DNA of 32,607 nt from Thermoplasmatota archaeon (lineage in GTDB: Archaea > Thermoplasmatota > E2 > JACPAO01 > JAHFTW01), in the NCBI GenBank assembly GCA_041636435.1, contig JBFKTF010000003.1, forward strand, positions 1-32,607, given 5' to 3'. A program made the translations under genes and the position numbers. Below, piece after piece: positions 27,643 to 32,607 of this stretch. Under the pieces are notes generated by a model, which had not been told where the DNA came from, ran no database searches, and was given only the letters and a program-made list of their open reading frames with translations. The stretch's first letter is position 1, and each line of letters starts with the position of its first letter.

Positions 27643-29283
27643 GTGCCCCAGACCCGGCAACGGCCGTCCAAGATGGCCCGCTTCAACGAGATCGTGTCGA
27701 TCCTCGTCGAGAACGACTTCTGGGGATTGCTGCGTACCCTCATGCGCGGCGACCACACCCTCCGCGACGGCACCCCCGTCGCGGCCCGCGTCCGGCAAGT
27801 GCTGGAAGCCTTGGGTCCGACGTTCATCAAACTCGGGCAACTGATGGCCACGCGGCCCGACCTGGTGCCCCAAGAGTTTGCGGACGAGTTCAAGAAGCTC
27901 TACGACGGCACCGCTCCGAGTCCCTACGAGGACGTGCGCCGGGTCATCCAGGAGGAACTGGGCAAGGACGTCGAGCAAATCTTTGCTGCTTTCGACGAAA
28001 AGGCCCTGGCCAGCGCCAGCGTCGGCCAAGTCCACCAAGCGGTCCTGCAAGATGGGACCAAGGTCGCCGTCAAGGTGCAACACCCGGGCATCCAAGAGGA
28101 CATGCTGCTGGACTTTGAGATCCTGCGGGGCCTCGTCACGTTCATCGAGAAGACCTTCGCCGCCAGCCGGCTCTGGCAACCCAAGCAACACTTGGACGAA
28201 CTCAAGTCGATGCTGGAGCGGGAGCTCGACTATCGCTACGAGATGAAGAACACCCTGCGCGTCGCCCACAACTTCCGTAGCGACTCCGAGGTCCACATCC
28301 CCCGCATGCACACGGAGCTCTGCTCTGGGCGCGTCATGGTGATGGAGTTCATCGACGGCATCAAGTTCGCCCACGTGGACCACTTGGATGCCTTGGGCAT
28401 CGACCGCAAGAACGTCGCCCGCATCATCACGCACGCGATGGCCAAGCAGATCTTCGTCCACCGCATCTTCCACGCCGACCCGTCCCCGGGCAACATGATG
28501 ATTCTCAGCAGCGACCGGGTCGTCTTCCTGGACTTTGGCGCCGTGGGCATTGTCACGGAACGGCGCAGCAAGAACATCCTCAAGCTCATCACCAGCGTCG
28601 GCAAGAGCGACGTCGAAGGCATCGCCGAAGCGGTCATCGATCTGTGCGAACAGCACGGCGAATACGACCACAAGCGATTCATGAACGACGTCGAGCGGTT
28701 GTCCGACTTCATCGAACGGGAACAGGTCAGCGTGGCCGACCCACGCATGATGGAGATGATTCTCGACATGGCCAAGCGGCACAAGATGCTCTTGCCTGCC
28801 GACTTCATGCTCATCAGCCGGTCGTTGTTCCAATTCGATGGGTTCTGCCGCGAACTGGACCCCGACTACGACTTGGTCACGGTCCTGGATCCGCTGGTCG
28901 CGGAGCTGGTGTGGAAGAACATCACGAACACGAAGAAGCAGAAGGAGCTCGTCGAGGAGACCGTCGGGGAGTTGCTGCGCTTCGGGCGCACGTTCCCCCA
29001 CGCCCTGAACCAATTGGTCAAGCGCATCGAACGCAACGAATTGCGCACCACCATCGACGTGGCGGGCTTGGAAGGCATCAAGCAGAGCCAAGGCCGCAAC
29101 ATGCAGAAACTGGCCTTCACGGGCATCGTCTGCTCCCTCATCCTCGGATTGGCCGTGGTCTACACCGGCCCCGAACCAGGAACGCGGGGGTTGCAATTCA
29201 TGTTCCTCTCAGGGGGCATCATCGCCGCCTGGGCATTGGTTCTAATCTTCTGGTCCGAGATGATGAAGCGCCGGGACGATTGA
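27643..29283 (+). CDS. UbiB/ABC1 (AarF) atypical kinase with two C-terminal TM segments
   Basis: 'LGPTFIKLGQ', 'ASASVGQVH', 'VAVKVQHP', 'FHADPSPGN', 'LDFG'. Confidence 0.93.
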   Translation: MPQTRQRPSKMARFNEIVSILVENDFWGLLRTLMRGDHTLRDGTPVAARVRQVLEALGPTFIKLGQLMATRPDLVPQEFADEFKKLYDGTAPSPYEDVRRVIQEELGKDVEQIFAAFDEKALASASVGQVHQAVLQDGTKVAVKVQHPGIQEDMLLDFEILRGLVTFIEKTFAASRLWQPKQHLDELKSMLERELDYRYEMKNTLRVAHNFRSDSEVHIPRMHTELCSGRVMVMEFIDGIKFAHVDHLDALGIDRKNVARIITHAMAKQIFVHRIFHADPSPGNMMILSSDRVVFLDFGAVGIVTERRSKNILKLITSVGKSDVEGIAEAVIDLCEQHGEYDHKRFMNDVERLSDFIEREQVSVADPRMMEMILDMAKRHKMLLPADFMLISRSLFQFDGFCRELDPDYDLVTVLDPLVAELVWKNITNTKKQKELVEETVGELLRFGRTFPHALNQLVKRIERNELRTTIDVAGLEGIKQSQGRNMQKLAFTGIVCSLILGLAVVYTGPEPGTRGLQFMFLSGGIIAAWALVLIFWSEMMKRRDD

Positions 29284-29319
29284 CGGTCCCTTTTATTTGC
29301 ACCAGCTCGATGGAATGGC

Positions 29320-29817
29320 ATGAAGACCCTCCCGGTCCTCGCCATCGTTTCTGCCGTCGTCGGTGCCATCGGCGCCATCGTGTTCGTCGACCCCGCCCAG
29401 CTTCTGCTCGGCTTCCTGGCCGTCGCCCTTGGCGTGGTGGCCATCGTCATGCACCGGGCGCTGCCCGGCTTCGTGGTCGGCGGCGGCTCCATTGTCTTGG
29501 GCATTCTCGGAAGCCTCTGGGTCATCGGCAGCATCGGCGGTGAAGACGGCGAAGTCGGCTTTGGCGCCTCGCCCGAAATTGGCCACGCCGTGCTGGTGTT
29601 CACGATGCTCGCCACCGTGGGGCTCCTCTTGTGGGTCCACTTCCACGACATCGCCATGTGGGCCAAGGGCGTCGGCATCGCCAGCCTCGTCCTGACCCTC
29701 GTCTTGGCGCTCGTGTTCAACGGCCAACTGGGCGACCAATCGGCTGTTGGCGGTTTCGTCGTCGCCGCGGCCGCCCTCGCCGGCATCGTGGTCCCCATCG
29801 AACGCATGCGCGCATAG
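29320..29817 (+). CDS. Hypothetical membrane protein (~6 TM)
   Basis: Highly hydrophobic; TTTTAT TATA at 29291-29296. Confidence 0.7.
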   Translation: MKTLPVLAIVSAVVGAIGAIVFVDPAQLLLGFLAVALGVVAIVMHRALPGFVVGGGSIVLGILGSLWVIGSIGGEDGEVGFGASPEIGHAVLVFTMLATVGLLLWVHFHDIAMWAKGVGIASLVLTLVLALVFNGQLGDQSAVGGFVVAAAALAGIVVPIERMRA

Positions 29818-29855
29818 GCGACGGGCCTAAGAGCGACGCCCGACTCGGCCGCGCC

Positions 29856-31193
29856 ATGAGCCTCCGGACCCTGGGCTGCGGCCAGGTCACCAGCGAGCAC
29901 TACGGCACCACCCAGACCTTCGCCGGCTGGGTTGACAGCGTCCGCGCCAAGGGCAACATCGCCTTTCTGGAACTGCGCGACCGCACGGGCCGGGTCCAGT
30001 TCGTTCTCCTGAAGAAGAAGCTGGCCGAGGAGGCCCCCGGCTTGTTCGAGAGCCTCACCAAGCTCACCGCCGAATCTTGCGTCGCCATCACCGGCGAAGT
30101 CAAGGAATCGGACAAGGCCAAGGCCGGCTTCGAGGTCTTGCCCACCAGCGCCGAAATCCTCAACGTGGCCGAGACGCCCCTGCCCATGGCCCTCTGGGAC
30201 GATGACATCGAGACCGGCCTCGACACCCGCCTCGACAACCGCTTCCTCGACGTGCGCACCGACCGCGCCAACGCCATCTTCCAGATTCGCCACGAAGTGC
30301 TGCGCGCCGGCCGCGAATACCTCACGGCCCAGGGCTTCCAAGAAATCCACACCAGCAACATCATCGCCGCCAGCAGCGAAGGCGGCACGGACACCTTCAC
30401 GGTGGATTACTTCGGCCAGAAGTGCTTCCTCAGCCAGTCGCCCCAATTGTACAAGCAGATGATGATGGCGTCGGGCATGGACCGCGTCTTCGAAATTGCC
30501 CGTTACTTCCGCGCCGAGAAGCACTCCACCACGCGCCACCTGAACGAATCCACCGCCTTTGACTTGGAGCAGGCCTGGGTCCGCGATGAAGACGACGTCA
30601 TGCAGACCATCGAAGGTCTGCTGCACGCCATTTGGCAAGGCGTCGCCACCAACTGCGCCAAGCAAGTCGAAATCCTGGGCGCGGACGTCAAGGTCCCCGC
30701 GCTGCCATTCCGCCGCGTGCAATACGAAGAGGCGTTGGAGATCATCAACGGCCGCAGCGAACTGGGCCTCGAATTCGGTGACGACATCGGCACCGAAGCC
30801 GAGAAGGTCCTCGGCAAGGCCATGGAGGAAGAGGGCCACGAATTCTACTTCATCACCAAGTGGCCCCTGGCGCCCAAGCCGTTCTACATCCAACCCGAAG
30901 AAGGCGGCCAAGACAGCCGCCTGTGCCGCGCCTTCGACTTGGACTTCCGTGGCGTCGAACTCATTTCGGGTGGCCAACGCATCCACGACCCCGAGCTCTT
31001 GAAGCAGGGCATCGTACGCTGGGGCCTCGACCCCGCCGACTTCGGCGACTACCTCGAAGCGTTCCGATACGGCATGCCGCCCCACGGAGGCTGCGGCATC
31101 GGCATCGAACGCATCCTGATGCAGATGCTGGGCCTCGGCAACATCCGCGAAGCCATCCTGTTCCCGCGGGATATGGATCGGGTCACGCCGTAG
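29856..31193 (+). CDS. aspS: Aspartyl-tRNA synthetase (archaeal type)
   Basis: OB fold 'AGWV..VRAKG..FLELRDRTG', 'LDTRLDNR', 'LSQSPQLYKQ', 'FRAEKHSTTRHLNE', 'ELISGGQRIH', 'GMPPHGG.GIGIER', 'FPRD'. Confidence 0.96.
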   Translation: MSLRTLGCGQVTSEHYGTTQTFAGWVDSVRAKGNIAFLELRDRTGRVQFVLLKKKLAEEAPGLFESLTKLTAESCVAITGEVKESDKAKAGFEVLPTSAEILNVAETPLPMALWDDDIETGLDTRLDNRFLDVRTDRANAIFQIRHEVLRAGREYLTAQGFQEIHTSNIIAASSEGGTDTFTVDYFGQKCFLSQSPQLYKQMMMASGMDRVFEIARYFRAEKHSTTRHLNESTAFDLEQAWVRDEDDVMQTIEGLLHAIWQGVATNCAKQVEILGADVKVPALPFRRVQYEEALEIINGRSELGLEFGDDIGTEAEKVLGKAMEEEGHEFYFITKWPLAPKPFYIQPEEGGQDSRLCRAFDLDFRGVELISGGQRIHDPELLKQGIVRWGLDPADFGDYLEAFRYGMPPHGGCGIGIERILMQMLGLGNIREAILFPRDMDRVTP

Positions 31194-32050
31194 GCGTGTC
31201 CCGCGGATTGCGGCCCACTTGTGGGCCGTATGACCGCGTGACTCCGTAGGAGTCTCGTGGAGGTGGCGGTGCGCGGGCGCTCGCCTTGGCCGCATGGCCG
31301 CCATGGGAGGGTCCCGCATCCAGGGAACCATCGGTGCCAACGTGGGCATGTCCACGTCCAGCGGATGCACCGGAAGCGTGACACACAGGCCACTGTGGAA
31401 GGCGGCTTTCCCGAGAACGCCTTTGTCTGCCCCGTGTTTCATTGGGTTTGCCGCGCAAGCGGCGACGACGGTCGTCATGGCGCCCGGGACACCGGAGCCG
31501 GATCGTCGGTGGGTCACGGCCAGGGATGGTCGCGGCCCGGGAACCGCGCCCTTGGCCCGGTGACGCCCCACGGGGCGACGCCGTGCCCATCCAGGCGCCC
31601 GCGTCCCTCGGGATGCAGGCGGCCAAGGACTCGGTGACCACCGCCCCGGCAACGGCGGCGGCGCCGACGGACGGGGCCATGGCGCGCGGACGGGACGGGC
31701 TTGCCCGCCCCGCCCGCAACACCTGCGCACCGCGCGGGCCGTGGTCGCATCGCACCCGCCACGCAGCCGACCCGGTCGGAAGCCACCGGGGCCCTCGGGT
31801 GGGCACGTCGAGAGACGGGCCCGCGATGCCAGCGCATCCGCGCCGACCCCTGACCACATGGTCGGGCGGGCCGCTCATTGGGCTGCCCGCCTCGGAACGT
31901 CATCCGAGGGGGTTCACGGACGCGGCCACTTCGGTGGCCGCACCGTCGTCCCTGCGGCGGGGTCCTTCGGGGCTTCGCCGCAGGGCACTCTTGTGTCCTC
32001 CGTGGGCACTCCGCGCCGGTCTGGGTGGTCGCCGGCGCGGACCTGCCTAC
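31190..32050 (+). ncRNA. Candidate large structured non-coding RNA or non-autonomous element, family unknown
   Basis: No credible ORF; more than 15 hairpins by eye with cUUCGg and GCAA/GAGA tetraloops and G-U pairs favouring the + strand; closing stem gtaggcgtgtcc/ggacctgcctac. Confidence 0.6.
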
Positions 32051-32607
32051 ACGAACCGATGCACCGCACCTTGGTGGTCCACGACGTACAGCGTGCCCGA
32101 TGCGTCCTCACCAAAGCTGCTGATGCGCAAATCCGTGTCCAGCGTGTCTTGCAATGCCCAGCCGTCCCCCGTCGACACCACGGTGCGGATGGTGCCCGAG
32201 CAATAGTCTCCCAGCACGTACTTGCCGACGAGGCCCGACACGTCGCCGCGGTGCACGAAGCCGCCCGTCACCGAGCAGTCGCCTCCTTGGTTGGCGTACT
32301 CCGCCACCGGCAACACATGGTCGATGGCGACACCGGGTTCGTGCAAGTGCGTGCCCTCGTACACCGGCCAGCCGTAGTTGGCGCCCCCGTTGCCTCCGGC
32401 CGCCTCGAAATTGACTTCCTCCCAGGCATCCTGGCCCACGTCGGCAATCCATAGGTCCCCGGTGGCGCGGTCGAAGCTGAAACGCCACGGGTTGCGCAGG
32501 CCCCAGGCCCAGATCTCGTCGAGGGCGTCCGGGTCGCCCACGAAGGGGTTGTCGGGCGGCACCATGTAGGTCCGGCCGCGATCGACGTCGATGCGCAGGA
32601 TCTTGCC
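32047..32607 (-). CDS. PQQ-dependent glucose/sorbosone dehydrogenase (GSDH beta-propeller), 5' part outside the window
   Basis: 'GKILRIDV', 'PPDNPF', 'WAWGLRNPWRFSFD', 'DVGQDAWEEVN', 'NYGWP', 'SFGEDASG'. Confidence 0.92.
   Translation of the reverse strand, partial: GKILRIDVDRGRTYMVPPDNPFVGDPDALDEIWAWGLRNPWRFSFDRATGDLWIADVGQDAWEEVNFEAAGGNGGANYGWPVYEGTHLHEPGVAIDHVLPVAEYANQGGDCSVTGGFVHRGDVSGLVGKYVLGDYCSGTIRTVVSTGDGWALQDTLDTDLRISSFGEDASGTLYVVDHQGAVHRFV

Follow-up and report, generated by a model that had tools for sequence, protein, structure and literature searches.

Does the only large gap in a 32.6-kb contig of an uncultured Thermoplasmatota archaeon hold the gene of a large structured RNA? 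The gap in question, 853 nt at positions 31194-32046 of contig C3, lies between the convergent genes aspS and GSDH (glucose/sorbosone dehydrogenase), and a first-pass annotation had proposed it as a candidate novel large non-coding RNA (ncRNA). The stretch of DNA analysed here, called the window, is this entire contig (32,607 nt) of a 2.0-Mb archaeal metagenome-assembled genome (MAG) with 66% G+C. That genome is denoted G000, other G-numbers stand for its relatives, and g4 is a genus label. Large structured RNAs of archaea beyond ribosomal RNA (rRNA) are, to our knowledge, essentially those of RNase P and of the signal recognition particle (SRP). We regard the gap as probably a single-copy gene of a large structured ncRNA on the + strand, from an undescribed family restricted to one order of Thermoplasmatota, and with the same good but incomplete confidence we take it for a genuine predicted structured-RNA gene of a new family. 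That 31332-32040 is wholly one predicted functional RNA is less certain. The original observation is confirmed and its interpretation, a large RNA that may be undescribed in archaea, is supported: of the refuting conditions, four were examined (an Rfam match, folding no better than shuffles, homologues without covariation, a conserved coding frame), and each came out in favour of the claim. Beyond ~31520 no homology to relatives was found.

The non-coding character of the gap was assessed from codon periodicity. The aspS open reading frame (ORF) ends at 31193 (stop codon TAG, 31191-31193; Pfam tRNA-synt_2 and OB fold), and a minus-strand ORF with a Pfam GSDH match has its stop at 32047. G+C differs among codon positions by 0.38-0.52 in aspS and by 0.34-0.46 in GSDH, but by only 0.02-0.28 in the gap. 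A genome-wide scan for low-periodicity stretches of at least 450 nt found 52, among which the gap has the highest G+C (0.725); it is the sole such stretch on its contig, which bears out the earlier description of an only large gap. The same scan flagged the contigs carrying RNase P RNA and SRP RNA. Inside the gap G+C rises to a maximum of 0.79-0.80 at 31500-31799, versus 0.60-0.68 in the flanks. A search for a conserved protein-coding frame was negative: the gap and the homologous loci are without codon periodicity, and five gap ORFs gave no Pfam match (best E-value 0.13). An 899-codon frame on the minus strand (29160-31859), running antisense through all of aspS into the gap, is a high-G+C artefact, which makes ORF length uninformative in G000.

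Homologues of the gap were sought with sequence and covariance models. Comparison by blastn with 40 relatives gave hits of at most 79 nt, none convincing; those in G028, G014 and G009 (query 258-300), first taken as chance, correspond to the region of the GCAA hairpin described below. With nhmmer, gap positions 145-347 matched a region downstream of aspS in G012 (E 7e-7), and the cores of G000 and G012 align without gaps over 150 nt. A covariance model built from these two copies only (R1) gave full-length matches in 10 further genomes of the same taxonomic family (32.7-68.3 bits, E 1.4e-6 to 8e-17), that is 12 of the 32 family genomes scanned when G000 and G012 are counted. With a 14-sequence covariance model (R2), matches at E ≤ 2e-7 came from 16 of the order's 38 genomes, G000 included, and two weak matches were added; leaving G000 aside, the collection of homologues suggested earlier thus shows the core in 15 of the remaining 37. 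The R2 match in G000 is full-length (31332-31483, 118.7 bits, E 5e-33). Both models were trained partly on the window's copy, and the independent support is given by the 10 other genomes found with R1. Other families of the class were sampled with 113 genomes, and none of these had an R2 match under stricter filters. In G000 itself the gap is single-copy by blastn and by the covariance model.

Wider collections added no new carriers. Two scans of JGI metagenome contigs produced 0 and 2 candidate stretches, none confirmed by the model, and IMG/VR viral contigs produced six, with no true match. A scan of genome contigs yielded 26 candidate stretches, nine of them confirmed and all from genomes already known to carry the core. 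Two of these carriers, species representatives from the same family as G000, are recorded as 'uncultured Halobacteriales archaeon' and the other seven as Thermoplasmatota/Thermoplasmata, probably a labelling error. Besides its strong copy, G009 has a second weak core match at C66:3771-3909 (+) (25.3 bits, E 4e-4), which may be a diverged paralogue or chance.

The assembly of the locus and its variation were examined with contigs from public DNA runs, which represent marine and sediment metagenomes of three studies and cover the full gap; the pieces 31319-31706, 31637-32112 and 31708-32300 bridge it into GSDH. These runs may include the source sample of the MAG and are thus no independent proof of the assembly. 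A look-up of runs containing the sequence found no RNA run, and in the DNA runs X5 and X7 the parts that lack cover are uninformative. Small contigs from two other studies match only 31316-31617 and 31389-31567. One contig of a variant strain (run X1, 31221-31622) has 12 differences from the window, all in 31251-31335 and none in 31336-31622. Such a distribution is consistent with the core being more constrained than the leader. Two of these substitutions, at 31251 and 31252, fall in a GUA-loop hairpin and are not compensatory.

The core (31332-31483, +; 165.9 bits with R1) is a multi-stem junction. In the alignments a closing helix joins its 5' end to the conserved ACGGUC(A)UCG, and a GGGG/CCCC helix is also present; in the window the closing helix P1 is modelled at 31334-31336/31476-31478 and 31341-31343/31468-31470. 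Next to a short hairpin at 31384-31397 stands the hairpin at 31399-31423, whose 12-nt loop has the consensus UUUCC(N)GA(A/G)AA(U), UUUCCNGAAAAU-like. Its loop stays constant and its stem changes, from AAGGCG/CGCCUU in G000 to UCGCG/CGCGA, GCA/UGC and CCAU/AUGG elsewhere. The loop of the window, GCUUUCCCGAGAA, is the GAGAA variant common to G026 and G029. The most conserved element of the RNA family is the GCAA hairpin, GCCGC-GCAA-GCGGC at 31450-31463 in G000 (helix 7, 92.9% paired), which reads CCGC-GCAA-GCGG in the family and has a CCCAC/GUGGG stem in G012. The window's copy thus carries both features that mark membership, the conserved-loop hairpin and the GCAA hairpin.

Base pairing in the core is supported by covariation, as a check proposed in the first-pass annotation had called for. 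Pairing holds in 80.4% of the cells of the 19-row model alignment and in 39.0-46.2% in controls with slid partners; both sides have changed in 18 of 23 pairs (5-9 in the controls), and the covariation score is 0.264 against 0.037-0.093 slid, with none of 500 shuffles as high. A 14-row alignment gave similar results. Core helices contain 34 G.U cells versus 16 A.C cells. Downstream of the core, seven of the 15 homologues folded have a second domain, a long hairpin capped by CCG-GAAA-CGG (GAGA in G010). The corresponding position in G000, 31484-31503, has only GACA and GAGC loops. A kissing contact between the UUUCC loop and the GGAAA of the second-domain loop was considered, but the variants GAGA, GAGC and GAAC show no covariation with it, and the idea was dropped.

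The relatives indicate how far the element extends. At 17 of 18 related loci, those with a match of E ≤ 0.006, an aperiodic stretch of ~500-1300 nt has the core close to its 5' end, ~100-250 nt inside, and continues for ~500-1000 nt on the 3' side. The weak match in G017, which may be false, directly precedes a coding sequence. In 11 family genomes the aperiodic stretch ends in CCGCUUGCGCGG, the exact reverse complement of CCGCGCAAGCGG in the core. Located 413-805 nt downstream, this 3' motif, CCGC-UUGC-GCGG, precedes T-rich sequence in 10 of these genomes, G010 being the exception; measured from core start to 3' motif the element is 813-943 nt long, with G043 (537 nt) and G046 (642 nt) as exceptions. 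Over the central 14 nt of the two segments 146 of 154 cells are complementary (137 Watson-Crick and nine G.U), three are A.C and five are other; in G012 both partners are altered together. Complementarity amounts to 15.46 of 20 within the same genome and 14.27 of 20 across genomes, a difference reached in 3 of 5000 permutations. Two genomes outside this family but in the same order, G026 and G028, have weaker 3' motifs, and a T-run follows that of G028.

Folding energy and loop types were then compared between strands. The minimum free energy (MFE) of the gap is -520.2 kcal/mol on the + strand (z -4.99) and -497.0 kcal/mol on the - strand (z -5.15), and none of 20 dinucleotide shuffles matched it on either strand; the comparison with shuffled controls that the first-pass annotation had proposed thus shows folding beyond chance, with z about -5 on both strands. 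In local folding (150-nt windows, 60 shuffles each) the lowest z in the gap is -7.1 on + and -4.2 on -, and two gap windows have z of -2.9 and -7.1 on + versus -0.8 and -4.0 on -. Outside the gap 24 local windows, some straddling its edges, span z -4.3 to +2.7; leaving aside 31126-31275, which crosses the aspS stop and the first hairpins (z -4.3 on +, -3.6 on -), the span is only -2.2 to +2.7.

Since the energies of the strands are nearly equal, the strand signal rests on loop types and G.U pairs. Between core start and 3' end, 12 elements contain 161 perfect hairpins with a 4-nt loop; read on the + strand, 83 of these have a GNRA, UNCG or CUUG loop, as compared with 5 of 161 on the - strand and a genome background of 1321/24798 (5.3%). 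For the G000 copy the counts are 4/14 on + versus 0/14 on -, and for the whole G000 gap 5/16 versus 0/16. In the 11 relatives 59 of 79 stable-loop hairpins lie more than 200 nt into the element, which gives the whole non-coding stretch, not the core alone, the signature of a + strand RNA. The claim of strand-specific selection at the RNA level is therefore supported by loop types and G.U pairs, not by energy, which hardly separates the strands.

No known RNA accounts for the gap. Rfam 15, with families such as OLE, ROOL, GOLLD, HEARO and the group II intron, gave no match in the window at gathering thresholds, nor in 13 homologous loci (38,363 nt) at E ≤ 0.1. In E-value mode 31000-32250 gave hits to unrelated families of 15.8-21.1 bits, where cut-offs are 55-98. 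ARAGORN found no tRNA in the window. Archaeal-type RNase P RNA (C264:258-536, -; 121.2 bits) and SRP RNA (C147:661-966, +; 131.2 bits) of G000 were located above the Rfam cut-offs on other, short contigs. The absence of RNase P, SRP, tRNA and rRNA hallmarks noted at first inspection agrees with these searches, and no known Rfam family removes the novelty. Literature searches at the level of abstracts brought up no large structured RNA of this kind for Thermoplasmatota or other archaea, which is not proof that none has been published.

Several findings weigh against the gap being a functional member of a new RNA family, or at least against the strength of the evidence given above. The covariation alignments were fitted to the model and are biased toward it; RNAalifold on an unfitted MAFFT alignment gives the GCAA hairpin only. 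Pairwise compensatory counts based on MFE over whole elements gave kept fractions of 0.26-0.52, with no consistent strand difference, and the z-score of the whole gap is about equal on both strands. The 3' partners were picked as the best complement in their own genome, which slightly biases the own-genome score. The element is patchy and, since no more than 3 of the order's 10 near-complete genomes carry it, dispensable. R2 finds nothing in the three congeners (72-91% complete), one of which, G002, keeps the aspS-GSDH synteny with a coding-looking gap of ~370 nt and no RNA match. The window's copy is an atypical member as well. Only about 150-190 of its 853 nt can be aligned to relatives; the 3' motif is absent from the + strand of the window at up to three mismatches and, in plausible context, from the G000 assembly, and no U-tract was found in this copy. 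The core itself is off-consensus at conserved positions, with GAGAAC for GAAAAU and GACACACAGG for GCAG..GGGG.

These peculiarities of the window's copy favour the main rival explanation, a relic: the family would be real and the locus here 3'-remodelled or decaying, with a core of ~150 nt left and 31520-32046 an unrelated spacer. Besides the lost 3' motif and U-tract, the unalignable body, the off-consensus core and the empty congeners, the lower share of stable tetraloops (4/14 here, pooled 79/147 in the 11 relatives) speaks for it. We nevertheless judge a relic unlikely, as nowhere in the region is local folding stronger than in the unalignable part (z -4.6 to -7.1 on +), its UUCG, GAGA and CUUG caps occur on + only, and so do the three G.U pairs of its 16-bp stem. 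Bodies are moreover unrecognisable between other genera that retain both ends, and the core is unchanged in the strain contig whose 12 differences fall just upstream. The hairpins might instead form a structured 3' untranslated region (UTR) that stabilises or terminates the convergent aspS and GSDH messages, with no separate RNA function. The position between convergent genes, the hairpin over the aspS stop codon, the lack of a visible A+T-rich promoter-like box upstream and the similar stability of both strands would suit such an arrangement, which we find quite improbable: loci whose upstream gene is directed away from the core (in g4, among others) carry it too, as do loci with differing neighbours, so it depends neither on aspS nor on any other single message. 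Conserved loops, covarying stems and a 5'-3' pair 413-805 nt apart are unexpected of a generic 3' end, as is the enrichment of stable tetraloops on a single strand.

An element acting at the DNA level (a palindrome-rich repeat, a non-autonomous mobile element with terminal inverted repeats or an invertible segment) is very improbable. It is suggested by the 12-14-nt inverted repeats of the relatives, the GCAA and UUGC hairpins, which flank most of the element, by the patchy distribution over the order and by a placement relative to GSDH that varies among genomes. Yet there is a single copy per genome with no adjoining transposase, integrase or reverse transcriptase, the 5' repeat lies ~100-116 nt inside the core and not at its edge, the differences between repeats are nine G.U against three A.C, and the loop asymmetry of 83 versus 5 makes sense only for a + strand RNA. 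Scarcely credible is an unrecognised or decayed protein-coding gene. The gap is crossed by open frames of 231 aa (-) and 254 aa (+), but long spurious frames are normal at 66-80% G+C, the 899-aa frame antisense to aspS being an example, and the five gap ORFs lack Pfam matches. Weak periodicity appears at 31250-31450 and 31500-31750, but the minus frame that fits it has no stop before passing through aspS; homologues differ by indels of every length, and no homologous locus shows periodicity. The mismatches between the G000 and G012 cores hint at period 3, which we rejected as coding evidence on the same grounds (a fitting frame without a stop, no Pfam match, homologues with indels).

We therefore retain the structured-RNA gene as the preferred reading. 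The region 31332-31483, perhaps extending to ~31520, is homologous to relatives, and 31520-32046 is lineage-specific. A profile hidden Markov model (HMM) and single-sequence nhmmer searches with the bodies of 11 relatives against the gap and 300 decoys gave no hit in the gap. Bodies are strongly divergent also between other genera. We assign the lineage-specific part to the RNA on account of the hairpins and tetraloops it contains and because the relatives' elements, 0.5-0.95 kb long, offer an analogy.

In the mechanism that we propose, the gene would be transcribed from the + strand as a stable, self-folding RNA of ~0.7-0.95 kb; in G000 one RNA would span 31332 to ~32040 (~710 nt). The 5' GCAA hairpin and the 3' UUGC hairpin of relatives might pair, within or between molecules, and so close or join the RNA, or they may stay two separate hairpins whose loops are complementary. 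Such an RNA may act as a ribonucleoprotein scaffold or as a catalytic or architectural RNA, rather than as a cis-regulatory leader. Its source in G000 could be read-through from aspS, which is plausible since there is no A+T-rich box in the 140 nt upstream and aspS is co-oriented. Inspection by eye of 120 nt upstream of 16 cores gave inconsistent A+T-rich promoter candidates, e.g. CTTATCC in three g4 genomes.

The closest comparison is offered by OLE, ROOL and GOLLD, large 'ornate' non-coding RNAs of bacterial or phage-borne origin. They are ~0.6-0.9 kb long and lineage-restricted, combine tetraloop hairpins with conserved blocks, have families in Rfam, and their biochemical function is unknown. 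The element shares with them the size class, short hairpins with stable tetraloops, conserved blocks between variable stems and lineage restriction; it differs in its archaeal host, in having no Rfam match and in the absence of phage or plasmid context. No gene resembling a partner of OLE was seen beside the element, partner genes not having been specifically searched for. OLE, ROOL and GOLLD RNAs are reported to form homo-oligomeric complexes (PMC12286853). By analogy, the complementary 5' and 3' hairpin loops could in principle serve homo-oligomer contacts. Possible, but in our opinion doubtful, is the further idea that the element represents the first large 'ornate' RNA class of Archaea, with ends closing in a ring-like or head-to-tail manner to form an RNA-only or RNA-scaffolded assembly or a ribozyme, whose cellular role would lie outside translation, RNA processing and protein targeting.

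RNase P and SRP RNAs resemble the element in being single-copy, G+C-rich and multi-helical with GNRA and UUCG caps, and they are transcribed independently of their neighbours; unlike it, they are universal, whereas the element is known from 16 of the 38 genomes in a single order, and neither of their models matches the gap. In archaeal rRNA precursors the 5' and 3' flanks pair over long range, and far-apart segments are complementary in the element too. Those processing stems hold a bulge-helix-bulge motif for the splicing endonuclease, whereas the predicted helix of the element would be a perfect 14-bp duplex without it; in addition its 5' partner lies inside the core, no similarity to rRNA was found, and the window's copy is without the 3' partner. 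If uncultured Thermoplasmatota do make a conserved, order-restricted RNA of ~0.9 kb, it would stand as a new family with no relative known so far, and one whose covarying core and strand-specific tetraloops would suit it well to structure probing and cryo-electron microscopy. If the reading is true, scans for G+C-rich gaps in high-G+C archaeal MAGs can still reveal large RNAs.

The neighbourhood of the core varies among carriers. Its upstream neighbour is aspS in G000, G012 and G020 and an ABC1 kinase gene in G023; GSDH lies upstream and points away in G043, G047 and G010, and lies downstream in convergent orientation in G000, G019, G023, G014 and G020. A gene for a cupredoxin-domain protein is downstream in G044, G012, G009 and G046. 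Varied neighbours within a conserved neighbourhood argue against a leader or a 3' UTR. None of the neighbouring genes hints at a function. A Pfam scan covered four of the flanking ORFs and three window genes, and no reverse transcriptase, transposase, integrase or Cas gene was recognised among the flanking ORFs examined. In tblastn the downstream ORFs of relatives gave only noise against the gap, except for a G012 hit that reflects DNA similarity. The layout of aspS with convergent GSDH is found in several genomes of the family and the content between the two genes varies, from a full gene in G006 to ~1250 nt of non-coding sequence in G012; this slot is a hotspot for different inserts. The gap of G002 (L033, 2-331) contains a hydrophobic 110-codon frame. 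In G008 (L017) the 830 nt between aspS and GSDH belong to an aperiodic stretch of ~800-1000 nt with low G+C (45-55%) and no match to the RNA model. Upstream of aspS in the window lies a small hydrophobic ORF of 165 codons (29320-29817, +).

The remaining parts of the window's copy, all on the + strand, were read directly from the sequence. The local hairpins listed in the first-pass annotation are present, the one at 31646-31655 having only 3 bp, and an independent enumeration counts 16 hairpins in the gap whose stem is perfect over 4 bp or more and whose loop has 4 nt. At 31484-31530, the second-domain position, CCGG-GACA-CCGG and a CCGGAGCCGG hairpin were recognised from the folds of 15 homologues and the alignment, their homology to the second domain being uncertain. 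The lineage-specific, hairpin-rich body follows at 31531-32010 (G+C to 80%; local z to -7.1 on + vs -4.0 on -), with a CUUG-loop hairpin at 31696-31707, a GAGA-loop hairpin at 31806-31817, a further hairpin at 31890-31909 and two with UUCG loops, of 8 bp at 31922-31941 and of 16 bp, three G.U pairs included, at 31950-31985. A terminal 9-bp hairpin, CCGCGCCGG/CCGGCGCGG, at 32011-32040 ends six bases ahead of the GSDH stop codon. It stands at the site where relatives have CCGC-UUGC-GCGG plus a U-tract, has no U-tract after it and may be a diverged equivalent of their 3' motif.

Between aspS and the core lies a strain-variable leader (31194-31331; local z -4.3 and -2.7 on +). It contains a 9-bp hairpin capped by CUUG (31209-31230, found also by enumeration), the hairpin GACUCC-GUA-GGAGUC (31240-31254) and a stem formed by segments at 31263 and 31304. 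The GUA-loop hairpin is the second of two with a CC-GUA-GG motif and lies 50 nt downstream of the first, ACGCC-GUA-GGCGU, which spans the aspS stop at 31185-31197; in the alignment the motif also lies over the aspS stop in G020 and G012. The leader is partly alignable to that of G020, with one compensatory change of U.A to C.G in the GUA hairpin. Between aspS and the core G020 has about five CC-GUA-GG hairpins in ~250 nt, flanked by a direct repeat of ~15-16 nt from the aspS 3' end, GCGTTACGCCGTAGG, which resembles a duplication or insertion scar.

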